From a virus (taxonomy: Duplodnaviria > Caudoviricetes), in the IMG/VR virus record IMGVR_UViG_3300031718_000009, positions 1 through 63,967 of that record: 63,967 nt of DNA. One strand, written 5' to 3'. A program made the translations under genes and the position numbers. Every line of letters begins with the position of its first letter. The stretch's first letter is position 1. Shown piece after piece: positions 18,406 to 57,538 of the stretch. The notes beneath the pieces were generated by a model. The model searched no databases, had not been told where the DNA came from, and saw only the letters and a program-made list of their open reading frames with translations.

Positions 18406-20763
18406 TCAATGTACCTCGATGATGTATGGGTGATCAGTCAGGGGAAGAACTACGGAGCTGATGTTAGTACATGCAGTAGCGCACGGCGCGACCGCCGAGG
18501 TCCCCTGAGTTGGGTCGTACGTATTCACAGTCCCGTAGCTCGCGCCGAGGTTAACGGTCACGCTCTGCGTCGGCACCGGCTGCGTGCAGTTTGTTCCCGC
18601 AGTTGATCCTGATGGGCATTGTTCGTCCCATACAACGAGCTCGAAATTCCCATTGCTCTTTTGCAAGAGAAGATCGTGAACCGTCGCAGGCTCGCTTGTG
18701 ATCGAGTAGTTAAGTGTTCCGGTCGTAAATGCTACAGTGTCGGCGAGGATCGTAGTGAGATTATGGATGTATCCTGCCACCGGTCCAACAGCGACACCGG
18801 AGCTGTTGTACCATTGGAAGCCGTCGCCGGATGCAATGGCATAGATCGCGGTGTACTTATACCCACGCTTGAACTGTGAGAGGTAGGTGGAGAGATCGAT
18901 CTTCGCCCCAATAGCTTGAGCTGTCGCGTCTCCCAAGTACCATCCAGTCTCCGTGGTTACTTTTGGAACACCAGGAGCCTGAGTCGCCGAGTAGCCTTGA
19001 TAACTGTGATACCAAGTATTTTCGTAATCGCTGTAGAACGGATATCCAGTCCCCGGCAAATTACCGTTAACTGGATCGGCTGAGTTCCACGCGACGTTAT
19101 CTTGCGGCGTATATGTGCAATTGGTGCAGATAGTGTAGTTGTGCATGTTCGCCCAATCGGCGAACACGGTGCCAGCGGTCATCAACGTTACTAATGAGGC
19201 TCCAGCGCACGTACTGTCGAGGACCAAGCACTGAGCACCGGCATTATCGATTTCGTGGCCACCGTGCGTCAAGCCCCAGACTGGGACACCGTTTAGAGTG
19301 GCGTCTCCGCGAACTGCGGTGCGGAGATCACGCTGGATTTCCATGACGGGAACCCACGAGTAGGCTGTGCCACCAATAGCCCCCCCAGGGACACCATTGT
19401 AATAACCGCCCCAATTATCAGGTTCATTAGCACCCTCGACACCGATCAGAATGCCGGCGTTTTTTGTCGTATCCGCCGCAGAGATTACCGGCGCGATTTC
19501 AGAGTTAGATGCATGATACGTCGGGCAATTGAAGCCATTGATATCCTGACACATGGACCCCATTCCAACTGTCAGCTTCACGTTCGATCCTACAGCTTGC
19601 GCAAGAGAGACAAACTGCGCAGGGGTAACTGTTCCAGCCTCCGGTGCCCAACCACGTATCCATCGAACGCCTATGTATTGTAGGGCCGTTGGCAACCATG
19701 TAGTGAACCCTGTGCCCGTGCCGGTTAGAGTTCCGTTGATGTCAACGGCAATCGAGCTCAGGAAGTCATTAGCGGCAATGGCGTTCCCATTGGAACCACC
19801 CCCACCGCCTGCTGCCACAATTTGGCTTGTAGCGGCGCTTGTAGAGGGGAGGCTCGGGCCAGCCGCGTTCGTGGCGATTTCTTGGACCATCAAGGTGGTT
19901 CCTTGATCGGCCGTAACCAACGGATAAGATGTCCCCGTTGCGCCGGAGATCGCCGTTCCATTGCGCAACCACTTATAAGCGACAGAGGTCGGGCTGCCCG
20001 TGAAAACACCGGGGGTAACGGTAAGCGTCTGGTTTACCTGTGGAGACCCGCAGATTGCGGGGGGCACAAATACGACCGGGACATTGGCCGTCGCTTGAAC
20101 GAGCGTCACGCCGATGCCATCGAAATAGTTGGCGGGCGAAGACGTCGCTGTTTCAATCGGGGCGGTCCCGGTCAGAGCCAGATCGCCGATGGCCATAGAG
20201 CGTTGCGTATGATCCGTCGCGGCATTTCCAAAGCCAGTTGGCAGGGTGATCGTTTGCGCCGCACCGTCGTTATCCCAAAACCCGACATATTGCTCGGCGG
20301 CGATGCCGTGCATGGCAGGGATTGCGCACGAGGTTGCGTAAGTCCCGCACCCCGCTGACGCATCGATAGGTGTCGGGTTGACGTTCCGATAAGTACGGAT
20401 AACCCCTTCCGGGTACGATGTCCCGCTCCAAGTGTATGAAGCCGGTTCATTATTCGCAACGCGCCACCAAAGCTGAGCGCCTTGGATGGCATTGAAGGTA
20501 GGAACGCCGGTGCTCGTGACCTGCGTCCACCCGGTTGGTGTCGGGATTGATCCGGCCGCCGTTTCTTGGGTTGCGACATAGGCGAGCATAACGTCGCCGT
20601 TTTGCGTGCCTGTCGGGACGGCAATCGTCACTGTGGGACCTACACCAGACCCGAAGGTGGTTCCGATGTAAGTGATCGCCGCGCAGTTTCCTGCGGTAGG
20701 CGTTGCGAGGTATGCCAGAGCGCAGACAAGCGCGCTCACGGCAACGATTTTGGCGTTGACCAT
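18406..20763 (-). CDS. Multidomain glycoside hydrolase (clan GH-A-like) with an Ig-like domain and an N-terminal signal peptide
   Basis: Catalytic-type EGANEPD, NMHNY and TTETG motifs; Ig-like PPAI.G.PQV.QTLT..PG.....Y.W.RNG; signal MVNAKIVAVSALVCALAYLA. Confidence 0.7.
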   Translation of the reverse strand: MVNAKIVAVSALVCALAYLATPTAGNCAAITYIGTTFGSGVGPTVTIAVPTGTQNGDVMLAYVATQETAAGSIPTPTGWTQVTSTGVPTFNAIQGAQLWWRVANNEPASYTWSGTSYPEGVIRTYRNVNPTPIDASAGCGTYATSCAIPAMHGIAAEQYVGFWDNDGAAQTITLPTGFGNAATDHTQRSMAIGDLALTGTAPIETATSSPANYFDGIGVTLVQATANVPVVFVPPAICGSPQVNQTLTVTPGVFTGSPTSVAYKWLRNGTAISGATGTSYPLVTADQGTTLMVQEIATNAAGPSLPSTSAATSQIVAAGGGGGSNGNAIAANDFLSSIAVDINGTLTGTGTGFTTWLPTALQYIGVRWIRGWAPEAGTVTPAQFVSLAQAVGSNVKLTVGMGSMCQDINGFNCPTYHASNSEIAPVISAADTTKNAGILIGVEGANEPDNWGGYYNGVPGGAIGGTAYSWVPVMEIQRDLRTAVRGDATLNGVPVWGLTHGGHEIDNAGAQCLVLDSTCAGASLVTLMTAGTVFADWANMHNYTICTNCTYTPQDNVAWNSADPVNGNLPGTGYPFYSDYENTWYHSYQGYSATQAPGVPKVTTETGWYLGDATAQAIGAKIDLSTYLSQFKRGYKYTAIYAIASGDGFQWYNSSGVAVGPVAGYIHNLTTILADTVAFTTGTLNYSITSEPATVHDLLLQKSNGNFELVVWDEQCPSGSTAGTNCTQPVPTQSVTVNLGASYGTVNTYDPTQGTSAVAPCATACTNISSVVLPLTDHPYIIEVH

Positions 20764-20808
20764 GTTGTGAGTTCCTATTCGATTGTGAGGGTGAAAGTTT
20801 TTAGTGGG

Positions 20809-20931
20809 TCAGAAGAAGATGATGAGCGTGACGAGCCACAGCATCGCTGCCACGGCCGCTGCCCACCGGCCGTATATAATGGCGAGCCCGTCGATGATGA
20901 CCCGCCACATTTCCTTATCGACGCCGGTCAT
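20809..20931 (-). CDS. 40-aa membrane peptide
   Basis: Translated by hand; ATGA-coupled. Confidence 0.45.
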   Translation of the reverse strand: MTGVDKEMWRVIIDGLAIIYGRWAAAVAAMLWLVTLIIFF

Positions 20932-21257
20932 GCGACTGGCGGCGCGCCGGGAACCGGGAGAGCTTTGATCTTCGCCTCAAATTCGGCCCCGAGAGCGGTT
21001 ATCTTTGTCGCCAGCTCATCGAGCGGCGCGACGAATGTATCCAGCACGGCGGCGTGCCCAGCAGGGACCGTTGCAACCATGTCGGTCATCGCGGTATCGA
21101 ATTTCGTCTTCAGTGCGTCGATTGTCGTGCTAATCGCCGTGATCTTCGCGAGGATATCTGAGGATGTTGCCATGATGTCTCTGTGCCTTTTCTGCTCGAT
21201 GTCAAAGAAGAAGTCCAGACGGTCGAGCACCGTCTGTTTAAAGTCTTCGTCGGTCAT
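20928..21257 (-). CDS. Coiled-coil hypothetical protein of the lysis region
   Basis: ORF track. Confidence 0.65.
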   Translation of the reverse strand: MTDEDFKQTVLDRLDFFFDIEQKRHRDIMATSSDILAKITAISTTIDALKTKFDTAMTDMVATVPAGHAAVLDTFVAPLDELATKITALGAEFEAKIKALPVPGAPPVA

Positions 21258-21258
21258 T

Positions 21259-21531
21259 TTAGTTAGCTACGACTCTGTTATTCGCGGCAAACTTCGGGGA
21301 GTCCGCAATGGCCGGAGTCGTCACGACCTTTTGGACTTCAGGAAGAGAAGCAGCCGCGGCGATGGTGTTGGTCGTGTTGTGGGTCCATAACGACCACCCA
21401 AATGATGCTGCGGCGGTCACACCGCCAACCAAAGACGTCATCGTGGATTCATCGATTACGCCTTTGCTAACAGCGGCGCCCCCGAAGGCGAGAAGAACGG
21501 ACCTAATTGTTGCCAAAACTTGCGGGTTCAT
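21259..21531 (-). CDS. In-frame internal gene: Pam3-gp28-like putative holin, 90 aa
   Basis: AAGGAAG RBS before the ATG at 21531; IRSVL.AFGG..V.KG...LVGG...WSLW. Confidence 0.55.
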   Translation of the reverse strand: MNPQVLATIRSVLLAFGGAAVSKGVIDESTMTSLVGGVTAAASFGWSLWTHNTTNTIAAAASLPEVQKVVTTPAIADSPKFAANNRVVAN

Positions 21532-22284
21532 TATTGGGCTTCCTTGTGGTTGAGCCGCCTGGATGGCGGCGGGTTTTTGTAAAAGTGTAGGAAGCGGGCT
21601 TGTTGCCCCCTGCAATTTTCCAAAATCTGCGATTGTCGTTTCGAGGATGGCGATCTCGGCGTCGATCGATGCGCGCTCGGCGACGTAGCTTGCGTGTAGG
21701 GCCGTGAGATTGTCGAGAACCGCCGCAATCCTGCCCGCGGTGGGCGCCGACATCGGCGGAAGCACAGCGGGCGGCGCTGGGGCCGGTTGAATGGGAATTG
21801 GCATCGATGGGGCTGCCGGTTGCGGGATGGCCTGTGGGACGGCCTGGGGCGACGGCACGTCAGCCGTAAGATAAAACGCCGCCTCGGATATCCTGCGCTT
21901 GCGATTCACCCCGCCGTTAGCGTTTTGAAGAGCGCGGATTGCCGCCGCCGTTTTTTCAGGATCGCTTGGCGTGATGACGATCGGAAGGCGCCCGTAGTTG
22001 TAGACGAGCGAAGTGATTGCGGTTTTCTGATTTTCGGTCAGCTTGTCCCAGACGGGCCGCGTCATCCCGGTCTTGCCGTAGATCGCCTCTTGTTGGAACT
22101 GCGGAATGCGAAGCGCGAGATTTTGAAGCGCCCGCGCTTTTGTCGTCTCCATCCCTTCGGTGACATGAACCTGGTCAGGCCCCTCGGTATCGCTGCCATA
22201 ACCGAGGCGCCACGCATTCACGTCCCAATAAGCGCGTCCGGCATAGCCCTCGAACCCGGCTATGAACTCAGCGGTTGTCGTCAC
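21259..22284 (-). CDS. GH24 lysozyme-type endolysin fused to a C-terminal holin-like domain
   Basis: IAGFEG...AYWD...LGYG, NQ..AI.SLVYN.G and RR..EA; Pro-rich linker; two hydrophobic helices at the C-terminus. Confidence 0.85.
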   Translation of the reverse strand: MTTTAEFIAGFEGYAGRAYWDVNAWRLGYGSDTEGPDQVHVTEGMETTKARALQNLALRIPQFQQEAIYGKTGMTRPVWDKLTENQKTAITSLVYNYGRLPIVITPSDPEKTAAAIRALQNANGGVNRKRRISEAAFYLTADVPSPQAVPQAIPQPAAPSMPIPIQPAPAPPAVLPPMSAPTAGRIAAVLDNLTALHASYVAERASIDAEIAILETTIADFGKLQGATSPLPTLLQKPAAIQAAQPQGSPIMNPQVLATIRSVLLAFGGAAVSKGVIDESTMTSLVGGVTAAASFGWSLWTHNTTNTIAAAASLPEVQKVVTTPAIADSPKFAANNRVVAN

Positions 22285-22418
22285 GGCTCACCGTGCGTTT
22301 GGATGGCGGACGGGTAGTTCTTCAGCGCTACATGATGGCCGGAATTGGCGTAAACTGCCAAAGCGCAGCCGATCAGAATACCGAGTATCTGAAAGCACCA
22401 GTCAGGAGGTAACTTCAT
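22281..22418 (-). CDS. 45-aa single-TM peptide upstream of the endolysin
   Basis: Translated by hand (MKLPPDWCFQILGILIGCALAVYA...); GTGA-coupled. Confidence 0.5.
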   Translation of the reverse strand: MKLPPDWCFQILGILIGCALAVYANSGHHVALKNYPSAIQTHGEP

Positions 22419-22422
22419 TCGC

Positions 22423-25400
22423 TTATCTCGCTTGCTGGAAATTCGCGCCTGCTTTGATCAGCGCCTCGAAGACAGCCGTAGCTCTGTCTGGTGGCGCGAG
22501 CGCACGCATTACGCTGCCGCGCTTGATGAATTCGTCGCGGTCGAGCGCTTCGAGGACACCAGGATCGAGGAAGTATTTTCCGCCGATCTGTCGCGCGCCA
22601 GCGATAGAAATAAGAAAGCCACCCGATGGGTGGCCTGTGATCGTGATCGCGCCGTCCGCGGATTCCGCGGTGCCCCCAGGTTTTTCCAGGTATTTGATGA
22701 TTTCTCTCGGCTCTCGAAGTTTTTTGACGGCCCCGGCGACAACTTCCTTGTGCGATGTCTGCGCGCGAGGAGCCATAAGCCCCTGTCGAACGGTGCCATC
22801 ATCCATCGTGAAGTGTGCGATTTGCCCGACCTTGTGAAGTAGATCGTATGCCGCGAGCAAATTCCCCGTGGCGATCACCCGCTTTTCGCGAAGCTCGGAC
22901 TTGAAGCTGTCGAACAGCTTGGCGATTTCTGTGGCACTCGTCTTCGATGGATTGACGTGCATCGCGTTCGCCTCGCCGGTCTCTCCAGTCGTCAACTGCG
23001 AGAAAGGAACAGTCCTTGTGCCATAGCCAGGCATCGCGAGCACCGCGGACCAACTCGACGCGGCGTAGGGATTGATCGTCTTGCCTTCATGTTTTACCCC
23101 AACGACAAGCGCATCCGGCAAGGGCGTCTCATGGTTATTGGTGTGCAGGATGGCGCCAGGAAAGACAACGGCCAACTTGTCTCTCATGGCCTCCCTGCCG
23201 TCCGCCAATCGATTAGCTTGCTCTGCCGCTACCTCCGGGTCTTTGGTAATCGCCGTCATCGCGCTCTTGTATTCGTTGAACGCCTGATCGGCGCGGGTCA
23301 TCATCGCGGTATTGGCCTTCCCGCCAGCCGTTTGGAGCGCTTCGAGCGGCGCGAATTTTGGCACGATTTCTCGTCCCAGCATCGCATAAGCGGATTTCAT
23401 CACGTCATCGAATTTCGGCGGCTTGCGGGCGCTCTTGACGTCATACGTACCGACATGCACGGCGGCTTGGAACGGGCTATCGCCAGTCTTTGGAGAGATG
23501 TCCGCGCCGCCCTCGTACTTGGCCTGGAGATCAAGATGTTTGGCCTCAAGCGCATTTTCCCCGCGCTCGTCGAGATCGTCGATCTTGGCTTTGTATTGGC
23601 TCTCGATCGCGTCGTATATCCGTTCTTGGTCTTGCGGGTCTAGCAATGCGATGCGTCCGGTCGTCTTACGCGCGGCGTCTTCGTCCGGGTCTTTCGGATC
23701 AAGCGACTCTAGCGGCTCGCCAAGGTCGATATGAGCGCGCATGTCATCGAGCATAACCTGCGTCACCACTTCATCGCCGTAGTGGTTCAGGAAATCGACC
23801 GCGCCCTTGCCGGAAAGGCCGCTTTTCGCGTCCGCCGTCGTATTGGCGTTTAGGGAGGAAAGTTTCTTGGCGAGCACCGCCATCGGCCGCTTTTCCGCCG
23901 GTACATCGGCACCAAGATGGGCATAGCGCGGCTTGGACACTTGACCTGTGCGCAGGACACGACCGAGCATTTGCATATGAACAGTGATGTTCGGATGCGC
24001 CTGAGCGATGATCATGGCCCGCTGGCCGCGGCCGCTTTCCGGGAATGCCTCGCTATCGTGAAGCGAGATGCCGGTCGCACCGCTTTCGTTTAGAATGAGC
24101 GCTTTCAGTTTCCCGGAATTGAAATCTTTGACCGTCTGGGTGCGGCCCGCAACGGATTTTTCTTTTGGCGATCTGACCCCGATCCGCGGGATATTGCCCT
24201 TCCCGTAATCGAGCGTGTTGTTGCGGCCGGTGATTTCTGAAACGGAATGACCTGCTTGCGAAATCACCTGCCGTATTTTGTCGATCGGCGAGATCGGAAG
24301 CTTGCCGAAATCAAGCCCGTTGATGATGGCTTGCGCCTGATGATACGCGGCCAACCCCTCCGGTCCTAGCTCTTCGTCGGTCATCGTGTGTTTGTCTTCG
24401 ACGGCGCCGAATGGTTTTTTGATCGTGACGACGCGCGATCGATCGAGATAGCGCGAGAGAAGATCGCCGAAGTTCGCTCTGATGAGGTCGCCGGTCTTTG
24501 CGCCGGTCTGCTTCATGTAGTCAGAGACGAAGCTTTCCAGCGTGTTTGCGACGGCGATTACCGGGCGCTCGCCCCTGTTGATCGCCTCGACCGCAAGCTG
24601 CCCTGCGCGTTCCGCCTTCGAGGCGAGGAGGAATTGCGCAACGACGTTGTGCATGAGGGAGGTAAAATTCGTGCTTTCGGCCCCGGCCGTCCCAACCGAG
24701 GCATCTTGCCCGGCAATCGCGGCCTCGGCCTTGACTTGTTTGTCAATGTCCTTGACGGATTTGCCAGCTTTCTTTGAGAATTCATTAATCGCCCGCAACG
24801 CCCGCGAAAAGCCGGCATAGAGCTCGCGATCGATCGGCGTCACTTCCATATCGTATTTGATGCCGTCGAAAGACCGCTCGCGGCGAAGATACTGGCCGCT
24901 CTCGGCAAGCGCGGACGCAACAACTTGCTGCATCGGCACGCCGCCCTTTTTGATCGCCTCGCCGAGGTCCTTCATATCTGAGACGGCGTAGCGCATGTCG
25001 GTCTTGGAATAGAGCCGCATACTGTCCGGCCGCTTGGCATAGGTCGCCGAGGAATACGCAACGGCCTTGGCCTTTTGGACAAGCTCGCGGGCGAACTCGG
25101 CGCGATCTGCAGGGGGCGGGAGCTTGCCCTTTGCAATGCGCTTCTCGACGGCCGCACCGCCGGCATTATGGCTCTCGTCGAAAAGAATGATCGAGTTCGG
25201 CGCCATGCTCCGCAGAAAGTCCCGCCGCGCCGTATTCTGACCTTTGACCGTTTGCATTTGCGAGTAAGTGGTCATGATCATGTCGTGATCAAGCAGCCTA
25301 GCGCCGACGCGGTTGCTGCCCTGTTGGTTCCCGGTCGCCGCGATGTCGCGGAGTTGTTTCTCCTGCTCTGGGCCGTCCGGCGTTTTCAGAATTGTTCCTT

Positions 25401-28400
25401 GATCGCCGACCGGCAGCTTCAAGTTGCTATTGGTGGGCAGAATGCGCGGCTCGCGACCAAGCATGTCCGTCATCCCAATGTCCGTCATATCGTCGAACAT
25501 GGCGGCGTACAGATTGGGTTTCTCCGTGACGAAAATAGGCGTCATCCCGTTACGGATGCCGTAACGAAGGAGACCGGCAAGAACGCGGCCCTTGCCGATG
25601 CCGGTTTGATCGCCGAGGATCAACGAGGCGCCACGCTCGATGTTGTCGATCGCGAGTCCGAGCGCATCGACCTGCTCGGCGGAATAGTGCTTGCCGAGAT
25701 CGGCGGCTTTGTAGCCAAGCTCGCTTGCAACATATTTGGCGATCGGACCGTGACGACTTTCGACGCGGGCGAGAGCGGCGTCCGAGGCGTCGCGCATGTT
25801 CCGCGGCGCGAGCGTGCCGAGTTTCATGCCGGACGTAGATTTCGGGCTATAGGCTACCTGATTTTCGGTTTCGGCTTCTTTCGGGGCCTCGGGTTGTGCT
25901 GGTGCGGCAGGAGCAGCCCGCGGCTGGCGTGGTTCCGGCTTGAGAACGAAATGAACCTCGTCGTCACCCCACGGGGCCGCGCTACGATTGCGCACGTCCG
26001 AAGGAAGCCCTTCCGGCATATCCAGACGGCCAAGGTTTATCTCGCGCGCTTTGCCAGCCTGTACGAGCCTTTCCTTGAAGCTCGCGAGCGTGCCGGCGTC
26101 TGGATATTTGCGCCCGTAGGCATCATAGACTTGGGAGATCGCGACGCGCGTAGGGAACGGCGGCGTTTCGAGCTTATAGGCCACGTCCTTGACGCGATCG
26201 GCGAAGCTTGGCTCCGGCGTGCTTACTCCAGGTGGCCGTCGTTCGGCAGCACGCGGAGCGCCATGTCCTCCGGGTCCTCCGCGCACAGGACGTTCGGCAG
26301 GTTCAGGTGCGGCAGGTGGTTCTCGATGCTCATGTTGTTGAGGAACATTTGTTGGCCGAAGTGCTCCGGGTTCGACTTCGGGTCGATGTTCGGTTCCAGC
26401 ATTCCCGCGTCCGACATCGATCGGTTTATCCGCCTGATCATGTCCGGGCGTTCCGACTGCGGGACTCGGTGCATTAACGTCTGCGCTCGCGCCGCTAACT
26501 GGCTGCGGATGGCTTGGTTGCTGGGCAACGGCTTTCTCCTTTACTTCGCCCCACGTCTTTAAAATGGGGGGCGCGGTCATCATCGGGTAGGGGAGCGCGG
26601 ATTTCCCGGCCCCGGAAATCGTGATTACATCGACCGGCCAGCCGGCGCCCTGCTTCTCGTAGAGGTCGCCCGCGACGGTGAAATGCCCATCGACATTGAA
26701 CTTGTCATAGAGTGTCTTAAAAAACTCGCGCTTGGTCTTCGATCCGTATGCCTTTGTTCTCGCTTCGTCGGACTTCGCCAACGGCGACGGCCCACCGAGG
26801 ATCAGGACGGCCCGCCCGTCCGGCTTCATCGCGGCAAGCGAGTTCAGCGCGATAGCATGATCGATCTCGCCAGTCTCATAGCCAGGCTGGAAACGCGATA
26901 GGTCAAAACGGTCCCCTGCACCACCTTCGCCGTGACGCACTCCAAAAGGAGGGTTAGCAAGTACAATATCGAACGGACCATCGTTTTGCTTGACCGCCGC
27001 TTCGGCTGTTGCAGGTTTCGAGGCATCTCCGGTCATAGCAAAGAAGCCCTGTGACTTCAATGCGTTTATCCGTCCTCGGTTCAATTCGTTGGCAACAGTA
27101 TCGACGGCGTGCGCCTCAATCAAGAGCGCGCCGTTGCCCGCGGACGGCTCGTAGACTGTCTTGTCCGGCGCGACGCCAGCGAGCCTCGAAGCGGCATAGG
27201 CGAGCGGGATCGGCGTCGAATAAGCCTGGTCGCGCATCGAGGACGAGGTTCGCGTTCCAAGCTTCGGCTGGTCGGCGTAGAGCTTGACGAGCCGGTCGAA
27301 AGTGTCCGCCGGATCGGCGCCGTGGATATTGACGATCTGGCGCGCGGCCTTGACGACGCCTAACTCGACATTTTCCTCGAACGCCTTGAGCTGGTTTGGG
27401 TCCTTGAGATCGTGGCCCGTGACCTTGGCGGCATTCTCGCGCGAGAGCGGGACACTCGCCAGAAGGTGCATTGCGATTTTATCGGCCGGCGTATGGACAG
27501 GTTCGCTCTGGCCGCTCGCGAGGACCAAGCGGCCGGTTTCGAGCGCGTTCTGGGTAGCGGCGGCAAGCGCAGCACTGTCCGCCATCCAGGGTTTTTTGAC
27601 CTGGGCTGATTGTGGCGGCTTTGTGGCTTCTCGTTCATTTAACGAGACTGGCGTGTGAGATAGAAATCCACCCTGATTTCTAACTTTTTCGGCATTCTCG
27701 CGCGCCTCTCGGTCCTTTAGCGCCTGCGGCGTCGCTTGATAGGCACCTACGCTTGGTGCCGCTTCCGGTGCGCCAGGAGCAGGGCTTTTGCCCAGCGCTG
27801 GTAGCGCAACTGGTCCGGTCCTCGCGACAGGCGGGCGAGGCTCTGGAGGCGCCTGAGCAAGGTTTTGTATTGGCTCGGGGGCAGCGGGGAGTTGTTCGCC
27901 ATCTTGGATGCCCTGAACTTTCGGATCGGCGAGCGCCGCCTCGATGACAGCGTGCTCGTACGCTTCGTCCGGCGCCATTCCTGAAGCTTGGTGCTGTTTG
28001 GCGGCGGCCGCGGCCGGCGGATCGATGTCGATCGGACGAAGGCCGAGGGGCGGCGCAATTCCCCGCACAATTTCTGGCGTTGATATTGCTGGCTTTTCGG
28101 CTAATTGCGCGGACGGCGCGGAATTCGGCGCATTTCCTGGCGCAATTGGCTCGAAGCCTTCCGGCAGCGTACCTGACGGTTTGGCAAACGGCTTCTTGGC
28201 CTGCCCGCTCGCCAGCCATGTTTTGAGCTGGTCGATCGGGACTTCGGTAATTCCACCGATACGCTGCGGTGCGGAGCCGTCCGGGAAGGCCGCATCGTAG
28301 ATGCGCGTAGCCTCAGTTACGTTATCGACGCCTGCGACGATCTTGTGCTCGTCAAATTTTCCCGTCGCCGGGTCGTTCTGGTCGATAACGAATGCTTTTC

Positions 28401-29538
28401 CGTTCGGCCCTTTGTCGCCGAGGAAAATATCGACCTGATCGCCATCCTTACCGACTGAGCCCTTCAGATACCCGTAGTCCGCCGGGAGCACGGAGCTCCA
28501 TGGGGCGCCGGTCGGATCGACGCCTGACCGGATCGAGCCCTTGGGATTTTCGATCGTGACGGGGAGCCCGTCATAATTCACATGGCCTTTCTGGTAATTC
28601 CCGGCTTCGGCTTGCGGCGGTGTTGGCGCGGTGTCTACGACGTTGCGCGCGGGCTCGATGTCTTCCGGCGCGGCGATCTTGGCCGGGGTTTGGCGAGTTC
28701 CGGTCTGAGCCTCCGCATTCGGCGGTTGAACTGCTTCTTGGACTTCTGGCGGTTGTGGCGGGGCATTCGCAGCGGCCTGTGGCGGCGCGATCTGCACCGG
28801 GGGACCGCCAGCTTCTTTGTTTTTTATGAACTGGTCAATCTCTGCGCGTGTCTTTGCCCCAGCCGCGCGCGCTGAGGCGATATCCGCCTCGTTCAAGAAA
28901 CGTTCTACATCGGTTCCTTGGATGTCCGTTGGTTGTCCAACCGCTGTGGACAATTTCCCAGCGGCATGTCCAGTCGCCAATTGAGCGGCGAGCTGTGCCG
29001 CGGTCTTAAATCCCTCCGGCGCCGCCTCTGCGGCTGCCCCGCCGGCGCCGCCCGCCGCAGCGCCGATCGCAGCCGTCGTTGCCGTTGGCGCGCCGGTGAT
29101 CGCCTGTGTCGTTTCTAGGGCCGGTCCAGCGAGCGTTCCGGCCTTGCCGAGCAGCCCAACGGCAGTTGCCGGTAGGGTAGCGGCCGCGGCGCCATAACCG
29201 GTCGCATGGGCGATCTTCTCGGCCGTCGTCGCGTCTGGTGCGAGATCAGGGTTGATGCCGACCTGACGCTCAATCTCTCGCAACCACGCCGAGCCCATGA
29301 TGGGCGCCGGGTTGGTTTGCAGACCAACTCCGCGCAATGCCGTGTTGGCGATATCGACCGGAAGCCCGGCTATTCCCGCAATGGCGGCGTTAGGACCGGC
29401 TGCCGCGGCACCGAGCAGCCCGCGCGCCGTGGTTTGGCGGGGCGGCGGCGGGTAGAGTTTGTCATCGACGTATTCAAAGTCGGGAGGGAGAGGATGTTGA
29501 GGCGGCGGCGCAAATTCGGCGAAGAAATTGGCGCTCAT
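22423..29538 (-). CDS. DarB-like polyvalent virion protein, 2,371 aa: inorganic-pyrophosphatase-like domain, N6-adenine MTase and Strawberry-notch SF2 helicase
   Basis: GNYQKGH..IENPKGS.R..DYGY..DGDQVD; QAYSTP, YEPSAGNG and NPPF; GDQTGIGKGR, FDESHN, YSSATYAK, GISLH and QMLGRV.RTGQ. The ATG at 29538 is ATGA-coupled. Confidence 0.9.
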   Translation of the reverse strand: MSANFFAEFAPPPQHPLPPDFEYVDDKLYPPPPRQTTARGLLGAAAAGPNAAIAGIAGLPVDIANTALRGVGLQTNPAPIMGSAWLREIERQVGINPDLAPDATTAEKIAHATGYGAAAATLPATAVGLLGKAGTLAGPALETTQAITGAPTATTAAIGAAAGGAGGAAAEAAPEGFKTAAQLAAQLATGHAAGKLSTAVGQPTDIQGTDVERFLNEADIASARAAGAKTRAEIDQFIKNKEAGGPPVQIAPPQAAANAPPQPPEVQEAVQPPNAEAQTGTRQTPAKIAAPEDIEPARNVVDTAPTPPQAEAGNYQKGHVNYDGLPVTIENPKGSIRSGVDPTGAPWSSVLPADYGYLKGSVGKDGDQVDIFLGDKGPNGKAFVIDQNDPATGKFDEHKIVAGVDNVTEATRIYDAAFPDGSAPQRIGGITEVPIDQLKTWLASGQAKKPFAKPSGTLPEGFEPIAPGNAPNSAPSAQLAEKPAISTPEIVRGIAPPLGLRPIDIDPPAAAAAKQHQASGMAPDEAYEHAVIEAALADPKVQGIQDGEQLPAAPEPIQNLAQAPPEPRPPVARTGPVALPALGKSPAPGAPEAAPSVGAYQATPQALKDREARENAEKVRNQGGFLSHTPVSLNEREATKPPQSAQVKKPWMADSAALAAATQNALETGRLVLASGQSEPVHTPADKIAMHLLASVPLSRENAAKVTGHDLKDPNQLKAFEENVELGVVKAARQIVNIHGADPADTFDRLVKLYADQPKLGTRTSSSMRDQAYSTPIPLAYAASRLAGVAPDKTVYEPSAGNGALLIEAHAVDTVANELNRGRINALKSQGFFAMTGDASKPATAEAAVKQNDGPFDIVLANPPFGVRHGEGGAGDRFDLSRFQPGYETGEIDHAIALNSLAAMKPDGRAVLILGGPSPLAKSDEARTKAYGSKTKREFFKTLYDKFNVDGHFTVAGDLYEKQGAGWPVDVITISGAGKSALPYPMMTAPPILKTWGEVKEKAVAQQPSHPQPVSGASADVNAPSPAVGTPGHDQADKPIDVGRGNAGTEHRPEVEPGALRPTNVPQQHEHREPPAAPEPAERPVRGGPGGHGAPRAAERRPPGVSTPEPSFADRVKDVAYKLETPPFPTRVAISQVYDAYGRKYPDAGTLASFKERLVQAGKAREINLGRLDMPEGLPSDVRNRSAAPWGDDEVHFVLKPEPRQPRAAPAAPAQPEAPKEAETENQVAYSPKSTSGMKLGTLAPRNMRDASDAALARVESRHGPIAKYVASELGYKAADLGKHYSAEQVDALGLAIDNIERGASLILGDQTGIGKGRVLAGLLRYGIRNGMTPIFVTEKPNLYAAMFDDMTDIGMTDMLGREPRILPTNSNLKLPVGDQGTILKTPDGPEQEKQLRDIAATGNQQGSNRVGARLLDHDMIMTTYSQMQTVKGQNTARRDFLRSMAPNSIILFDESHNAGGAAVEKRIAKGKLPPPADRAEFARELVQKAKAVAYSSATYAKRPDSMRLYSKTDMRYAVSDMKDLGEAIKKGGVPMQQVVASALAESGQYLRRERSFDGIKYDMEVTPIDRELYAGFSRALRAINEFSKKAGKSVKDIDKQVKAEAAIAGQDASVGTAGAESTNFTSLMHNVVAQFLLASKAERAGQLAVEAINRGERPVIAVANTLESFVSDYMKQTGAKTGDLIRANFGDLLSRYLDRSRVVTIKKPFGAVEDKHTMTDEELGPEGLAAYHQAQAIINGLDFGKLPISPIDKIRQVISQAGHSVSEITGRNNTLDYGKGNIPRIGVRSPKEKSVAGRTQTVKDFNSGKLKALILNESGATGISLHDSEAFPESGRGQRAMIIAQAHPNITVHMQMLGRVLRTGQVSKPRYAHLGADVPAEKRPMAVLAKKLSSLNANTTADAKSGLSGKGAVDFLNHYGDEVVTQVMLDDMRAHIDLGEPLESLDPKDPDEDAARKTTGRIALLDPQDQERIYDAIESQYKAKIDDLDERGENALEAKHLDLQAKYEGGADISPKTGDSPFQAAVHVGTYDVKSARKPPKFDDVMKSAYAMLGREIVPKFAPLEALQTAGGKANTAMMTRADQAFNEYKSAMTAITKDPEVAAEQANRLADGREAMRDKLAVVFPGAILHTNNHETPLPDALVVGVKHEGKTINPYAASSWSAVLAMPGYGTRTVPFSQLTTGETGEANAMHVNPSKTSATEIAKLFDSFKSELREKRVIATGNLLAAYDLLHKVGQIAHFTMDDGTVRQGLMAPRAQTSHKEVVAGAVKKLREPREIIKYLEKPGGTAESADGAITITGHPSGGFLISIAGARQIGGKYFLDPGVLEALDRDEFIKRGSVMRALAPPDRATAVFEALIKAGANFQQAR

Positions 29539-29732
29539 CGCTGGCGCACCATCCAACACCACCAAGTCGGCGGGGGCTTCCAATCCGGGATTGAATAATC
29601 TATCATGCCAGGATCAACCCAGACCTCTGTCATCCCTAGAGCCGCCTTTATCCAATGGATTATTAACGCGACAAATAGAACACAATTGATGAAAACCAGA
29701 CAACGAAACAACAGACCATATTTATTCATCAT
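29535..29732 (-). CDS. Small membrane protein
   Basis: Hydrophobic N-terminal half; coupled to the giant gene. Confidence 0.5.
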   Translation of the reverse strand: MMNKYGLLFRCLVFINCVLFVALIIHWIKAALGMTEVWVDPGMIDYSIPDWKPPPTWWCWMVRQR

Positions 29733-29821
29733 TCCACCTTGACATTTCTCCATTTATACTGAATATAGTGAGTTGTTCATGCCTGACACGCGGAACAAAT
29801 CAGTATAAATGGAGAAGTAGA

Positions 29822-45760: not shown

Positions 45761-46195
45761 CTACGTCGCGCTGTCCCACATCACGATCTTCGCGTTCGCC
45801 GCGTCGGGGTGCGCAATGCCGAATCCGCCCAAGTAATACCAAGCGACGCCGCGACTTCTTCCGTAGTCGTCCGGGATTTTGGCGCGTATCTCCTCGGGGA
45901 GCGCAATAGCTTCGGTCACTGTGTCGGCGCCGAATAGGAATGCCCAACTAGACTGTCCGTTCGCCCATGGGTCGGATACTTGCGCGTACGGATCGAATAG
46001 CACGGAAGCATCGGAACCGCCAGCCGGGATGAACGTCTGTTCAATAAAGCGGGTGTTTTCGTAACGGCCGATCTCGCCGGAGAAGATTTCGGCGATACCA
46101 AGGACCGTATACTGCTTGATGCCTTCGAGGGTGTTCTTGAACGGCCGGTAGGTCGTCGGCCGCGAGATCATCATATAGTCGTCGTCTTTGAAAGG
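45761..46195 (-). CDS. Major capsid protein, exon 2 (144 aa)
   Basis: PFKDDDYMMISRP...GEIGRYEN.RF.E...DYGR..GVAWYY; N4-gp56-like MCP C-terminal half. Confidence 0.9.
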   Translation of the reverse strand, partial: PFKDDDYMMISRPTTYRPFKNTLEGIKQYTVLGIAEIFSGEIGRYENTRFIEQTFIPAGGSDASVLFDPYAQVSDPWANGQSSWAFLFGADTVTEAIALPEEIRAKIPDDYGRSRGVAWYYLGGFGIAHPDAANAKIVMWDSAT

Positions 46196-46989
46196 CTTAG
46201 TGTTCGCTCTGGTTCGCTACACCAGAACCGCCATTTGGCCGCTGCAACTTTCATTGCAGAACAGACTATATCTTGCTCCGTTATCCACAGAGACTGAGCG
46301 CTTCGGGCCGCTTGGCCCTACTCCCTTACGGGATAGTCGTTGAACGTTATCGAAGGATATGAAAGAGTGTAACCGTATCCCCCTTTCATGCGGTGAAACA
46401 TGAGACGACAACATCACTTCGCCACCCCAATGACGCCCTTTAGCGACATCGAAGCGGCTTACATCGCTGGAGTAATTGATAGCGATGGATGCATCCATTT
46501 CGAAAGAGCACGCCGTAAGAACGGCGGCTTCCGCTACAGGATCATCGTTGCCGTCGATATGTGCGATCTGCCTACTATGGAGCACATTTCCAAAACCACT
46601 GGAGGGCGTCTCGTCACAAAACGCTCTCTGCGCGGGTCGCTAACCAAACGACCATTCATTTATCGTCTCACTTGGCGGAACGGCCCTGCCGAAGATTTTC
46701 TTCGGAGGATTCTTCCGTTCCTGCACAACAAGAAACGGCAGGCAGAGCTTGGTATTGAATTCCAAAACCAAGTTGCAAAGCCCCTTGGAGTGAAATTCAC
46801 TGCTGATGATTTCACCATTTGCGAGCGCTTCTATTTAGAAATGAAAGCGCTCAACAATCCTTCCGATCTTCGCTGCTGATTGCCCAATCCTGCCAGTTTT
46901 CAAACCGTCGCGTTTATCCTCGCGGATTCCGCTGTGGTTGGCAGGCTCTAAGGGGTTTCCAGACAATTCACTCAGTGTACCCAAACTTT
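46196..46989 (-). ncRNA. Group I self-splicing intron, 794 nt, in the major capsid gene
   Basis: 5' exon ends in U with a P1 U-G pair (UACCU/GGGUA). Core elements P AAUUGUCUGGAAA, Q AAUCAGCAG, R GUUCAACGACUA and S AAGAUAUAGUCU are present, with a terminal G. Splicing restores the frame. Confidence 0.93.
46400..46879 (+). CDS. Single-motif LAGLIDADG homing endonuclease, antisense within the intron
   Basis: AAYIAGVIDSDGCI...ILPFL..KK.QA...F. Confidence 0.9.
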   Translation: MRRQHHFATPMTPFSDIEAAYIAGVIDSDGCIHFERARRKNGGFRYRIIVAVDMCDLPTMEHISKTTGGRLVTKRSLRGSLTKRPFIYRLTWRNGPAEDFLRRILPFLHNKKRQAELGIEFQNQVAKPLGVKFTADDFTICERFYLEMKALNNPSDLRC

Positions 46990-47547
46990 AGGTATGTTTT
47001 GCTCCTTCATATAGTCCGAAAGAGCTTTGATATGCCCTGTATTCAAGCCAACGTTGTTGGTGATCGCTGTTGAGCCGGTCGTTGAGACCGTTACTGACGT
47101 GAGGGACGTTCCGCCGGTCGGTGCAGCTCGAAGCGGGGTCTGCTTGAACTGCAAGAAGGCGACGATGTCGAAGAATTTCCTGGCGTCGTTCTTCAGCGTC
47201 TGATTGATGATCGCCATGATGTCGTGTTTGGCGAGGTCCATCAGCTTGCCGGTGAAGGGAACGGAGATACCGGCTTCGGTGATCGTCAGCGTCCGCTGAA
47301 GGATCGTAAAGCCGCCTTCCGGCATGGCTTGGCGCTCGTCGAGCTGGCGCCCTTGAGTGCCAATATTCGTATAAACGTTCCAGTGAAAGAGATCACCGCG
47401 GTTTAGACCTTTCTGTTCTCCGTCTGGAGCGTCGCAAAACTGTCTAAACTTGGTTAGCGGTTGAGTAACGGTCCGCATATAGTCGGAAAGTTCGTCCGAA
47501 TACGCGAAGCCGCCCTCGCTTGAGACCGTCCAGATTTGTCCGGCCAT
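46990..47547 (-). CDS. Major capsid protein, exon 1 (186 aa; spliced product 330 aa)
   Basis: KFRQFCD, G..FHWN, TITEAG.SVPFT; follows the scaffold gene. Confidence 0.9.
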
Positions 47548-54410: not shown

Positions 54411-54917
54411 TCACAGACCGCCGCTCGTCGTGTGAACGGGGCCAACCGCAGCACTGACCGCCTCGGCGCCGGCCCCTATACTGTTGACCCCCTCAACGCC
54501 TGCCGACAGCATGGCACCGGCATCGCCAACAGTCGGAACGTAGAATTTCGACGCGGCGCCGATGATCGGAACGCCGTTGCGAAACCAGCGATAGACAAAC
54601 TCCGTTGGCGATCCTGTCCACACTCCGGTCGGGACTTTGAGCGTTATCCCAACGACTGGCGGCAACCCTTGGGAAATGACCGGGATTGCAGTGTTGGCGG
54701 GTGCCCCGCTAACCGGCGGCGCGTAAGGTCCTAAGACGTAGGGATCGCCGTAGAAGTTGCGGGCGCGGTGCCCGGCCTCCCCGAACGGGTACATTAGCTC
54801 GTCGTGCTTATCGCGTTCGAATGTCGGCTCGAGGTCGAGGACGACGCGCAGGAACGGGATCGCGATCGAAGTGACAGTCCGGCTCGACGCCTGTGTCGGG
54901 GGCGCTGGGTTGGTCAT
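54411..54917 (-). CDS. Ig-like domain protein
   Basis: P.NT.IPVIS...VG.TL...G.WTG.P....Y.WFRNG. Confidence 0.75.
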   Translation of the reverse strand: MTNPAPPTQASSRTVTSIAIPFLRVVLDLEPTFERDKHDELMYPFGEAGHRARNFYGDPYVLGPYAPPVSGAPANTAIPVISQGLPPVVGITLKVPTGVWTGSPTEFVYRWFRNGVPIIGAASKFYVPTVGDAGAMLSAGVEGVNSIGAGAEAVSAAVGPVHTTSGGL

Positions 54918-55266
54918 TAGGCGCCATCCGCACAAGAAAGAACGAAGTATGAATGACCTGTGTTTGGAATTTCGGTAAGACCATTCGCAAAACCAAACGT
55001 AAGGTTAGTCAGCGCCGTCTCGCAAAGCTCCCGTGAGGTATATTCAATGTGTCTGGTCTCGTGGCACGCGGAAGCTCTACACGTCATCCACACGAGGAAA
55101 ACAGCCATCATTTTCTCTATAACCCCGTCATCGCGATAAGATCGATGACAGCGGCGATACCGAAGCAAAGACCGCCAACGTCGAGCAGGAGCCGGATGAT
55201 CATTTGCGCTTCGACTTCGCGTTTGATTTGTTCACCGCCGCGTTACCGGCACGAACGGCGCGCCCC

Positions 55267-55500
55267 TCATCGCCAGTGGATTTGAGAACCGAATTTGATG
55301 CCTCGGCGAACGCGCGTTTTGATTTCGCCGTCTTCGCCTTTTTCGTGTGCCTCGTCGCATCGGCTGGAGTCCACGGCATGTCGATTTTCCTCCAAAAGCG
55401 CGCGCAGGAACCGCATATTTTGTTCTTCGCTTATCCGAACCGGCGGATCAGCTTTCATGATGTCCATGTCGTACTCTGGTCTTCTTCTCGGCTTCCGCAT
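55267..55500 (-). CDS. Small hypothetical protein
   Basis: ORF track; coupled to neighbours. Confidence 0.5.
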   Translation of the reverse strand: MRKPRRRPEYDMDIMKADPPVRISEEQNMRFLRALLEENRHAVDSSRCDEAHEKGEDGEIKTRVRRGIKFGSQIHWR

Positions 55501-55600
55501 CAGTCTCTTCTGGCGATGAGCGCGACAAAATAAAAAATTGTTACCACACTCCCGACGACAAGCCCGATGATGAGCCCGGCTAGGAACATTGGCATGACAC

Positions 55601-55792
55601 CTATTTGCCCTTGCCGAGTTTAGCGTCCGCCCTGCGGTCGATCTTGGCTTTTAGAGCTGGGCTTGCGTGCTGGGCCGCGCGAGCCTTCGCGTCCCTGGCG
55701 TGAGATTTATCTTCGACCGGATAAGTACGATTAGGACCAGCGAATGCTGAGTCCGGTAGAGCGTTTCGCGCTTTCGCGGTGAGCTTGGCCAT
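55601..55792 (-). CDS. Small basic protein (DUF6582-like)
   Basis: MAKLT...RNALP.SAFA.P.R.YP..DK.HAR.A.AR. Confidence 0.7.
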   Translation of the reverse strand: MAKLTAKARNALPDSAFAGPNRTYPVEDKSHARDAKARAAQHASPALKAKIDRRADAKLGKGK

Positions 55793-56046
55793 CACTCGAC
55801 CTCGCAAAGTTCCTTAGCGGCGATGGGATTCTTTTCTATGATGTCTTGCGCCATCGAGCTGCGCGGAGCTGGCTTGCGCACCTTATCGCGGCCCTTGGAC
55901 GGCGGAACGAATTGCACAGAAACGACCCGTTGATCTGTGTTGACTCGTTCATGAGCTATCACGCGCCAATCGGACGATGACCACCACATTGCGTAGCGGG
56001 TAAACGTCCCGTCGCCGTTGGGATAGTAGGTTCGGTCAGCGTCCAC
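55792..56046 (-). CDS. Hypothetical protein
   Basis: ORF track. Confidence 0.5.
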   Translation of the reverse strand: MDADRTYYPNGDGTFTRYAMWWSSSDWRVIAHERVNTDQRVVSVQFVPPSKGRDKVRKPAPRSSMAQDIIEKNPIAAKELCEVE

Positions 56047-56200
56047 GGCCGCTCTTCTTCATGAACGGTGGCGCCATGCCTTTGCCGGACTTGCCGTCGC
56101 GCTTGTCCTGCGCTGCGTCGGTCTTGCTGCCTTCCGGCTTGCCGTGCTTTTTGTCGGCCTTCTTATCCTTGGCCGATTTCTCGAATGCTGCGGGTTTCAT
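56036..56200 (-). CDS. 54-aa Lys-rich peptide
   Basis: Translated by hand (MKPAAFEKSAKDKKADKKHG...); RBS AGGAG. Confidence 0.65.
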   Translation of the reverse strand: MKPAAFEKSAKDKKADKKHGKPEGSKTDAAQDKRDGKSGKGMAPPFMKKSGRGR

Positions 56201-56322
56201 TGTTATCTCCTAAAGAGCCGGCGAGCCTCAGGAACCCGCCGGCCTAGTCATGGGATTTTGCCATGTCCCCGCGCCAGCTTTGGCGGCTGACGCGAAGCTG
56301 TTTTATGCCGCGATCGCGGCTG

Positions 56323-56982
56323 TTAGTTCATCGCATTTATCTCAAAAAAGAACAGAACGATGTCGGCAACGGCAGTCGTGGCATTGCCCGTAACCGCGAT
56401 GATGATCGCGGCGTTTTCAGGCGCTGTCGGTAACACCGGAATACCGAGCGCGCCAGCGGCGCCCAACCCAAGGTGCGTAGAACCGAAAATGGCGCCAGTG
56501 CATTGGGCGTACTGCGTGTTCGAGCCAGCGGCACCGGCCTTGAAGACGTTCGCGGAGAGCGTCCATCCAGCGTTTACCGTCGTTTGGGCGCCAGTGTCGG
56601 CGATGAGCGTGCCGCCGGACACCGTGCTACCAACAACCGCGGCGGTGCAGGCCCAATAGAGACGCACCGTCTTGTTGGTGGCGTTGGTCGGCCCGGATCG
56701 GCCGGCCGCGGTCAGAGCAATGCCGCGCCCGGCGATATCAAGTGTGCCGGCCGGAAGCGTGTAAACGGCGAGCACATTGTCCGCGCCGGTCGCACCCGGA
56801 TTGATACCAGTGGCAGAAACCTGCCGAAAGATATTGCCTTCCCTCGACATTGCGGCGAGCCCACCACCGAACGGCTCGACGAAGTTTGGATTTTGATAAA
56901 TGTCGTTAAAGACCGCATCGACGCCGTAGCCGTCCTCTTGCGGGTTGACGTATTTCTGAGTTGTGCCGGTCGGCGCTACCAT
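56323..56982 (-). CDS. Beta-rich virion appendage protein
   Basis: RBS AAGGAG; its 30-aa N-terminus is homologous to that of 57663..59918. Confidence 0.7.
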   Translation of the reverse strand: MVAPTGTTQKYVNPQEDGYGVDAVFNDIYQNPNFVEPFGGGLAAMSREGNIFRQVSATGINPGATGADNVLAVYTLPAGTLDIAGRGIALTAAGRSGPTNATNKTVRLYWACTAAVVGSTVSGGTLIADTGAQTTVNAGWTLSANVFKAGAAGSNTQYAQCTGAIFGSTHLGLGAAGALGIPVLPTAPENAAIIIAVTGNATTAVADIVLFFFEINAMN

Positions 56983-56992
56983 CGTTGTCTCC

Positions 56993-57538
56993 TTAGTGGG
57001 TGAAGCCCCAAAGAATCACAGTGATTCCGGTTCCCGTGGCGTCTGCGGTGGTTGCAAGCGAGATGGCGGTATTGACGGCGCTGGCCGCGAGGCACGGGTT
57101 ATAATTTCGGATGAATGTCGCGCCTGGCGCGACGAGGGCTTGGAAACCCTGATAGGTAATCGTGCCGCCGAGAACACCAGTCAGCGTCATTGGGCTAACG
57201 CTTCCGGTCGCGCTACCTACTGCGTCAACCTCGATACCGCAGATATAGTTGGTCTTGCCGGGGACTGCGGCCATCGTCGCGGTGACGATGCCGGTCGTGC
57301 CCGATGCGTTGTTGACCGTCGTCGCGCCCGGCGTCAGGCAGTTGTTCGGGTTGTAGGCATCGCAGACTGCGACGTTCCCCGAGAGGATGCCGACCGGTCC
57401 GGGATTTGGATTGCTGTTCTGGACGGTCTGAGCGGCCACCGTCTCGCCGAACAGGACGAAGACACCCGGCGGCAAAGCCCAATCGACAAACAGATATGCG
57501 AGGATCGATGCAAGAAAAAGCCGGCTCGTGTGTCTCAT
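56993..57538 (-). CDS. Beta-rich protein with an N-terminal hydrophobic/signal sequence
   Basis: MRHTSRLFLASILAYLFV...; Cys pairs. Confidence 0.65.
   Translation of the reverse strand: MRHTSRLFLASILAYLFVDWALPPGVFVLFGETVAAQTVQNSNPNPGPVGILSGNVAVCDAYNPNNCLTPGATTVNNASGTTGIVTATMAAVPGKTNYICGIEVDAVGSATGSVSPMTLTGVLGGTITYQGFQALVAPGATFIRNYNPCLAASAVNTAISLATTADATGTGITVILWGFTH

Follow-up and report, generated by a model that had tools for sequence, protein, structure and literature searches.

Predicted Sec-exported, disulfide-bonded proteins in the late and lysis operons of a temperate phage

We analyzed a 63,967-bp stretch of viral DNA (IMG/VR record IMGVR_UViG_3300031718_000009; the window hereafter), which is a whole virus record with direct terminal repeats and an estimated completeness of 100%. 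The sequence evidence strongly supports the view that this phage encodes at least five proteins predicted to be exported by Sec and disulfide-bonded. An initial annotation had ascribed basic-then-hydrophobic leaders to four late genes, here called P0001 (18406..20763), P0002 (30635..32299), P0003 (30221..30622) and P0004 (56993..57538), and all four are found at these places on the minus strand. Within the late and lysis operons, the leader-bearing genes overlap their neighbours or stand at most 4 nt from them, and their products would therefore be made together with the structural and lysis proteins. Our preferred reading, to which we give about even odds, is that these proteins form a free accessory set that is exported outside the cytoplasm and acts on the envelope or on exopolysaccharide (EPS), rather than being parts of the virion.

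Export leaders and their conservation

Each of the four predicted leaders is basic, then hydrophobic, with small residues at positions -3 and -1. P0001 (785 amino acids (aa)) starts at 20763, with AGGA 9 nt upstream, and its leader, MVNAKIVAVSALVCALAYLATPTAG^NC, is most likely cleaved at TAG^NC. The open reading frame (ORF) of P0002 is open to 32371; translation from M25 (32299), which lies 4 nt past the stop of the upstream gene, gives a protein of 554 aa with the leader MRKMTVLKAFFPLIILLSGIANA^QA, and relatives keep the leader from this methionine. For P0003 (133 aa), the most likely start is 30622, which AAGGA precedes by 8 nt; its leader is MRKFFVAAFLFSSPAFA^VD. The earlier observation that the leaders of P0002 and P0003 both end in AxA is correct (ANA and AFA, respectively). 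P0004 (181 aa, start at 57538) carries the leader MRHTSRLFLASILAYLFVDWALPPGVFVLFGETVAA^QT, ending in VAA, which is atypical in being long and in having its hydrophobic stretch interrupted by Asp and Pro. The fifth leader-bearing ORF, at 1762..2010 on the plus strand, encodes 82 aa with the leader MKMLTRTLLIAAALVASATFATA^QT and two mature Cys nine residues apart.

The lipobox pattern is [LVI][ASTVI][GAS]C at the leader end. None was seen on reading all four leaders: P0002, P0003 and P0004 have no Cys at the cleavage site, and P0001 has A-G-N-C. The Asn at -1 rules out P0001 as a lipoprotein.

Leaders were scored with a simple heuristic of our own based on the n-region, the h-region and the residues at -3/-1 (strict cut, score >= 26). 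The criterion for Sec and signal peptidase I was a positive n-region, an uncharged hydrophobic h-region of ~8-18 residues and small residues at -3/-1. At the strict cut, 5/73 called genes were flagged, compared with 1.11 ± 0.94 in shuffled proteins (maximum 5 in 300 shuffles) and with 1/234 internal Met starts. The strict set contains P0001, P0002, P0003, the 1762-2010 ORF and a 72-aa membrane ORF (29535-29753). P0004, with a score of 21.5, passed at the lenient cut alone, its h-region being interrupted by Asp and Pro. Note that the heuristic by itself is a weak test, since the lenient cut flagged 10/73 genes vs 4.28 ± 1.96 in shuffled proteins. The real support comes from conservation of the leaders in homologues, a check that the initial annotation had named. 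A leader is present in 8/8 homologues of P0001 examined and in 5/7 close relatives of P0002, two of these five being unrelated in leader sequence. For P0004, a leader was recognized by eye in 13/13 database relatives (the heuristic flags 11/13) and is found at 20/28 viral loci. All 13 aligned P0004 relatives have an A-x-A^Q site after the hydrophobic stretch, and most have short classical leaders.

Leaders and cysteines covary in two protein families

The closely spaced Cys pairs described in the initial annotation were confirmed: the mature parts of P0001, P0002, P0003 and P0004 contain 14, 4, 2 and 4 Cys, all even numbers and mostly in close pairs. Cys make up 1.55% of the residues of these four mature proteins vs 0.36% in 16 leaderless late proteins of >= 200 aa, and the 2,386-aa, 725-aa and 475-aa proteins of the window have no Cys at all. 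IMG/VR contains one sister phage, G152 (62,352 bp, 94% complete). When the two phages are taken together, the mature Cys count is even in 11/11 leader-bearing proteins (2, 14, 4, 2, 4, 8, 6, 4, 0, 8 and 4).

The P0004 family was analyzed as a set of 13 database relatives and 28 viral loci. All 31 leader-flagged members have Cys at both columns aligned with C100/C149. In contrast, 0/7 leaderless members have Cys at either column; all seven are Cys-free throughout, and the two columns are mostly Ser-Ser. The remainder, one locus cut by a contig end and two with leaders missed by the score, are all three Cys-Cys.

For the P0002 family, a profile of the seven closest proteins recovered 2,503 representatives at E <= 0.001 and 1,112 at E <= 1e-10. 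Cys were analyzed in the best 150 of the 2,503 representatives; after 12 rows of more than 1,000 aa were dropped, 138 were left, 61 leader-bearing and 77 leaderless. The mature Cys count is even in 57/61 leader-bearing members (median 6) vs 45/77 leaderless members (median 2), and one Cys or none is found in 2 and 30 members, respectively. The Cys density of the two groups differs accordingly (Mann-Whitney p = 1.8e-13).

Because leader and Cys covary in two families and Cys counts are even in 11/11 proteins, Sec export and oxidative folding of the leader-bearing proteins, as predicted from their sequences, are strongly supported. Export followed by oxidation is the sole simple account of this pattern. 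The leaders would direct translocation through Sec, signal peptidase I would cut after ANA, AFA, VAA and probably TAG, and the Dsb system of the host would close the close Cys pairs.

A predicted polysaccharide hydrolase in the lysis cassette

P0001 consists of the leader, an N-terminal domain with the invariant pair C139/C146, an Ig-like domain (~244-318) and a C-terminal domain resembling glycoside hydrolase (GH) clan A. The ~200-aa N-terminal domain with its invariant C-x6-C is common to the whole family, and the C-terminal domain occurs in most members. Hallmarks of GH clan A are an acid/base Glu in N-E-P and a nucleophile Glu in T-E-x-G ~100-160 residues later. P0001 has NEP at 446 and TETGW at 604; in the family alignment, N-E stands at the acid/base position in 8/9 rows and TETGW is found in 7/9 rows. 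Sequence searches of the PDB with P0001 and P0002 returned nothing useful.

The best relatives of P0001 are proteins of 660-680 aa, including a 'conserved exported protein of unknown function [Methylocella tundrae]'; an additional Ig-like domain sets the phage copy apart. Homologues occur in 3/151 genomes sampled from the family of a Methylocella metagenome-assembled genome (MAG). At one bacterial locus (L003) the homologue stands beside GT1/GT4 glycosyltransferases, a polysaccharide deacetylase and methyltransferases, and at a second (L044) beside a Wzz-GNVR-AAA_31 co-polymerase, GT9 and a UbiA/FAD-binding/SDR set. A third locus (L045) is without polysaccharide genes. No phage genes were seen at these three loci. 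The relatives of P0001, the only pointer to the host, suggest Methylocella.

No orthologue of P0001 was found in the sister phage, where only the Ig-like part matches elsewhere. The corresponding place is taken by other small genes, with a leaderless 614-aa gene of Ig and beta-helix-like build before the endolysin. By its relatives, P0001 is clearly predicted to be a host-derived, non-virion copy of exported bacterial proteins from polysaccharide loci, and it is not a fibre. Of the initial description of the set as fibre- or spike-like, what stands applies to P0002 only, P0001 being the copy of a bacterial exported protein and P0004 a small jelly-roll.

The lysis cassette that holds P0001 is bracketed by 21259-22284 and 17590-17982. 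The former (21259..22284, minus strand) encodes the endolysin, with a Phage_lysozyme domain and a C-terminal Phage_holin_10 domain; the endolysin of the sister phage (L008 2421-3557) has Phage_lysozyme2 on the same C-terminal domain, a catalytic module swap. Directly after P0001, a gene at 18171..18404 (minus strand) encodes a 77-aa protein with three hydrophobic segments. Because its start overlaps the P0001 stop, it looks translationally coupled to P0001, and it is a candidate holin-like protein or membrane partner. By ORF order it has no counterpart at the same place in the sister phage; no homology search was made with it. The product of 17590-17982, with a hydrophobic segment near its N-terminus, resembles an inner-membrane spanin or a protein of that kind, the impression of a coiled coil coming from sequence alone. 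Inspection of 17100-22400 by eye revealed no ORF for an outer-membrane spanin with a lipobox.

P0002 and its putative partner P0003

P0002 has the Cys pairs 164/167 and 535/554 and matched nothing in Pfam and PHROG. Its core (~190-547) belongs to a large unannotated family with tail-fibre relatives. Of 100 family members scanned, four had any Pfam match (Gp34_trimer 1, Peptidase_S74 2, LRR_6 1), a cluster look-up of 10 members gave no informative names, and the N-termini of leaderless members look tail-fibre-like by eye. Eight polar core residues (D247, R279, Y301, D314, E348, K362, D373 and D381) recur in 53-56 of the 59 rows with a leader and in 60-64 of the 64 rows without one, which suggests a binding or catalytic site.

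In the P0002 orthologue of the sister phage, the leader and the first 190 aa are conserved (67% identity) and the C-terminal part is different; a conserved N-terminus with a swapped C-terminal part is seen across three relatives. The genomic context of P0002 rests on this one sister phage, because no more loci with P0002 relatives were found in viral and metagenome contigs. The P0002-family profiles A1 and A5 matched 0/151 genomes of the family of the Methylocella MAG and 0/401 of its class; as a control, profile A5 recovered the window's own P0002 gene. The mature part of P0002 was also compared by BLASTP with 13 late proteins of the window, including the fibre-like ones, and nothing was found at E < 1.

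The monomer model of P0002 is poor (pLDDT 58.2, almost no secondary structure), and Foldseek returned nothing for it at E <= 0.001. The top rows below significance were all phage HylP fibre hyaluronate lyases, fibre-shaped proteins of streptococcal prophages that cut the capsule polymer of the host (PDB 2c3f, others). At E 0.37 and TM 0.14, with a model pLDDT of 58, these matches are not significant and serve as a lead only.

Immediately downstream of P0002 comes P0003, with one Cys pair, C-x9-C. No relative was found in viral contigs, and its structural neighbours are only small viral proteins without assigned function (TM 0.62-0.66). At the same slot the sister phage has a leader-bearing 156-aa protein without similarity to P0003. 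From the gene order, we infer that P0003 may be a partner of P0002. A toxin-immunity pair was considered and rejected, the variable part of P0002 being a 350-aa domain common to thousands of fibre-like proteins. The GC content is 0.59 for P0002 and 0.60 for P0004, which is ordinary, and 0.50 for P0003, the one exception.

P0004 and its family

P0004 has the Cys pairs 59/67 and 100/149. Its model shows a helix (4-17), a low-confidence linker and an all-beta jelly-roll sandwich at residues 73-181, for which the ten-residue block means range from 71 to 95 and are mostly >82. In a fold search the best match (VIA Z 8.5) was a satellite-virus coat jelly-roll, followed at Z 6-7.7 by carbohydrate-binding modules (CBMs), spore appendage subunits, phage baseplate and cement proteins, and PBSX XepA. 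For the model, this range of scores is typical of a common fold, and no function follows from it. PBSX XepA, an exported protein of a phage-like element, and SPbeta YomS (PDB 6i56, 6i5o) have a beta-sandwich that superposes on P0004 with Z 6.7 and 6.3. Both scores lie in this common-fold range; the sequences are not similar, and these elements belong to a Gram-positive host. The best Foldseek match in the PDB had E 7.3e-4 and TM 0.28. In BFVD, an uncharacterised Curvibacter phage protein ranked first (E 4.1e-8), ahead of numerous other small proteins of phages, one of them a 'virion structural protein'.

Leaderless 145-aa forms of the P0004 domain are placed tightly between terminase and portal at three viral loci (L030, L034 and L036). 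In L018 a form with a leader comes after the portal, and in L031 another is preceded by protease and capsid genes and followed by a gene resembling a tailspike. The occurrence of both forms in the same terminase-portal region of unrelated phages speaks for a structural link. In the window, P0004 is flanked by genes for a 751-aa protein (57663-59918, Laminin_G_3) and a 219-aa protein (56323-56982). These two fibre-like proteins share their first 29 residues (48% identity, E 2e-7), which may be a common docking end. P0004 has no similarity to either, ruling it out as a copy of a neighbouring fibre tip.

The phage and the exported set of its sister

Pfam and PHROGs identified a SU10-type portal and adaptor, a large terminase, tail-collar and collagen-like fibres, a 2,386-aa DarB-like protein and an endolysin. 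The other arm encodes an integrase (14845-15882), a helix-turn-helix repressor-like protein, a DnaA-like protein and an MT-A70 methylase. On the basis of the integrase and repressor-like genes and of the SU10-type portal and adaptor, the window (GC content 57.3%) is assigned to a temperate phage with a SU10-type head-tail connector. A phage collection searched with blastn and tblastn contained nothing resembling it.

The sister phage has six leader-bearing late genes. These include the P0004 orthologue (77% identity), the P0002 orthologue and the following 156-aa gene. A further two, for a 449-aa fibre-like protein and a 281-aa protein that is beta-helix-like by eye and without family match, stand just before the portal module, where the window has nothing. 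The sixth is a P0004 paralogue (L007 1360-2859), in which a TolB-like propeller comes after a P0004-like domain (53% identity); the propeller matches PD40 and, below the equivalog cut-off, TIGR02800 (E 1.1e-29). The NCBIfam scan returned sub-threshold matches only. This paralogue could be described as a phage-encoded periplasmic TolB look-alike. Because the leader-bearing genes differ between the two phages, the lineage is seen to carry a changing set of predicted exported proteins.

Discussion

We propose that P0001 is a polysaccharide hydrolase captured from an exopolysaccharide or capsule locus of the host; its gene now stands between those for the endolysin and a holin-like protein. Working first from the periplasm and, once the cell has burst, in its surroundings, the enzyme would cut back the polysaccharide made by the host itself, and new virions would get free of the slime layer and not stick to it. 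It would retain its leader because its fold depends on seven disulfides. P0002 may be an exported branch of a fibre-like family that binds or cleaves glycans, and P0004 an exported binder with a jelly-roll fold. The targets of both would be glycans of the envelope or receptors at the surface, with the same role in exit or protection. P0003 could be a periplasmic helper or inhibitor matched to the variable C-terminal part of P0002. Our confidence in these predicted functions of P0001 to P0004 is moderate to weak. Soluble exported effectors, which the initial annotation had offered as its second option, fit the data better than its first, P0001 being a copy of a bacterial protein that is absent from the sister phage. 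An accessory nature of the set is also favoured by the six leader-bearing late genes of the sister phage, two of them inserted at a place that is empty in the window and one fused to a TolB-like propeller, by the lack of any match between mature P0002 and the other fibre-like proteins, and by the conserved polar residues of the P0002 core.

Several points weigh against a free accessory set. As to moron features, the sister phage lacks an orthologue of P0001 but encodes P0002 and P0004, as the window does, and with their ordinary GC content these two do not look like classic morons. Scans for promoters and terminators gave no moron signature, although at chance level they prove little. The P0004 domain is found in or beside the head and tail modules of several phages, and the build of P0002, with its conserved N-terminal 190 aa and swapped C-terminus, is usual for receptor-binding proteins of virions. 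The predicted GH fold of P0001 rests on motifs: a Pfam search found no family, and a PDB profile search gave only a weak match around the nucleophile (5jvk_A, E 0.042). Moreover, a protein that lysis would free anyway has no evident need of Sec, unless oxidation is the reason.

An unlikely but credible alternative is superinfection exclusion or receptor masking in the manner of T5 Llp or Cor, in which the exported proteins, acting from the periplasm or the cell surface, would bind or alter the phage's own receptor. Lysogens would then be protected and progeny would not be wasted on cell debris, a benefit that we hold with the same low confidence. The phage is temperate, with its integrase (14845-15882) and helix-turn-helix repressor-like gene, and P0004 lies between the two fibre-like genes with the shared N-terminal 29 aa; llp and cor also adjoin receptor-binding genes. 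The predicted CBM-like jelly-roll of P0004 and the TolB-like fusion of the sister phage also speak for this reading. Cor of phi80 and N15 is a small exported protein that acts in the envelope. However, Llp and Cor are lipobox lipoproteins, and a reading of the four leaders showed no lipobox. PADLOC matched 0/9 scanned proteins, and leaderless homologues cannot act in this way. Separate lysogen-active promoters gave no sign either, in a scan at chance level that proves little. T5 Llp itself is described as a small, exported exclusion lipoprotein (PMC9586334; bioRxiv 10.64898/2026.03.26.714494), and it is made early.

The first option of the initial annotation was that the proteins are virion appendages matured in the periplasm. 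P0002, with P0003 as helper, and P0004 would be exported, oxidised and docked on finished particles at lysis. The part of this proposal concerning export and oxidation is borne out by the covariation of leaders and Cys; the part concerning virion appendages found no direct support, and we consider it improbable. It would explain why Cys-free leaderless and Cys-paired exported forms of P0004 both occur in or next to head-tail modules, why the N-terminal 190 aa of P0002 are kept (67% identity) while the C-terminal part is swapped across three relatives, and why a different small exported gene follows P0002 in each phage, as with fibre chaperones. It also accords with the tail-fibre-like N-termini of leaderless P0002-family members, 3/100 members having Gp34_trimer or Peptidase_S74, and with the one 'virion structural protein' among the BFVD neighbours of P0004. 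Against this, P0002 has no docking similarity to virion proteins of the window, the origin of P0001 is clearly host and non-virion, the leader-bearing genes differ between sister phages, and one P0004 paralogue is fused to a TolB-like periplasmic domain. Moreover, a full-text literature search, judged mostly by titles and abstract openings and thus no proof of absence, returned no periplasmic maturation route for virion proteins of tailed phages. A more general form of the idea is that domain families of phage structural modules come in Cys-free cytoplasmic and Sec-exported, disulfide-bonded forms, both in or beside these modules, and that, if both do the same job, particles of some tailed phages of diderm hosts are completed with periplasm-matured appendages or decoration proteins; this, too, we regard as improbable. 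If the exported forms were virion parts after all, the textbook account of an all-cytoplasmic assembly of tailed phages would need an exception.

Some leaders might instead be uncleaved inner-membrane anchors that leave the protein facing the periplasm, which we think quite improbable. P0004 is the strongest case: its hydrophobic stretch of ~25 residues is broken by Asp and Pro and scored under the strict cut, and its model places the helix 4-17 before a low-confidence linker. This is countered by the A-x-A^Q site in 13/13 aligned relatives, most of which have short, classical leaders. Finally, wrong starts or chance hydrophobic N-termini of cytoplasmic proteins can practically be set aside: although the lenient cut flags 4.3/73 shuffled proteins and the P0002 ORF is open 24 codons further upstream, leaders are kept in homologues, even as non-homologous leader sequences, their presence covaries completely with Cys in the P0004 family, and the Cys data of the P0002 family contradict an artefact as well.

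How does a free exported set compare with known systems? PslG-type periplasmic glycoside hydrolases are exported clan-A-type enzymes encoded inside polysaccharide synthesis loci, and P0001 is likened to them by its clan-A-type motifs and by the polysaccharide locus of its relatives, without sequence match or CAZy family. Among phage proteins, the Sec-exported endolysin Lys44 of Oenococcus phage fOg44 and the SAR endolysins are late lysis enzymes with export signals (PMC6116005). P0001 resembles them in its place in the lysis cassette, its N-terminal export signal and its predicted accumulation outside the cytoplasm before lysis. It differs in lacking a muramidase signature, in having relatives in bacterial polysaccharide loci and in standing beside a separate endolysin (21259-22284). 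WceF of Pantoea stewartii is an exported glycosidase tied to an exopolysaccharide cluster and related to phage depolymerases, and it illustrates traffic between EPS-trimming enzymes of hosts and those of phages (PMC7949094). As described there, WceF is bacterial, with a Tat signal and a trimeric beta-helix, whereas P0001 is phage-borne, with a Sec-type leader and clan-A-type motifs. Neither a leader-bearing clan-A-like hydrolase in a lysis cassette nor a family that switches between Cys-free cytoplasmic and Cys-paired exported forms is covered by the endolysins, Llp or WceF.

Among exported phage proteins, endolysins, spanins and exclusion lipoproteins are established kinds. The data presented here would add two unannotated, widespread phage families that switch cleanly between a cytoplasmic, Cys-free form and an exported, disulfide-bonded form. 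The P0002 family alone has 2,503 representatives (E <= 0.001), and ~44% of the best-scoring ones are leader-bearing. The switch in leader and Cys offers a rule, readable from sequence only, for where a phage protein works. It suggests that a set of exported proteins has been overlooked in those temperate phages whose hosts are slime-producing soil bacteria; within this set, the host-derived predicted polysaccharide hydrolase of the lysis cassette is a candidate exit depolymerase.

Further features of the window

A second cell-wall hydrolase (48-977; Hydrolase_2, SleB-like; 309 aa, GC content 0.66) is encoded at the far genome end from the lysis cassette. A sigma-70 region 4 protein is encoded at 60763-61392 on the minus strand, directly downstream of the large terminase gene.

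The DarB-like 2,386-aa protein (22423-29583) and the 725-aa protein (32304-34481) have the N-terminal motif NFFAEFAP in common. Their orthologues in the sister phage (L002 3900-6062; 8212 onward) share another motif, DPWAGLANWD. Such motifs might serve as an N-terminal tag that co-varies between proteins of the internal or ejection type.

The major capsid gene is apparently split (45761-47547). The part at 46972-47547 resembles positions 51-200 of phrog_1357 (weakly, E 0.005), and the part at 45761-46174 resembles positions 238-339 (E 2.9e-06). A match to the full length of the group I intron model is placed between these parts (RF00028; 46242-47030, minus strand; 33.2 bits against a gathering score of 50, E 3.7e-6), and an ORF for a LAGLIDADG-type homing endonuclease (46400-46879) is found on the plus strand, opposite to this match.

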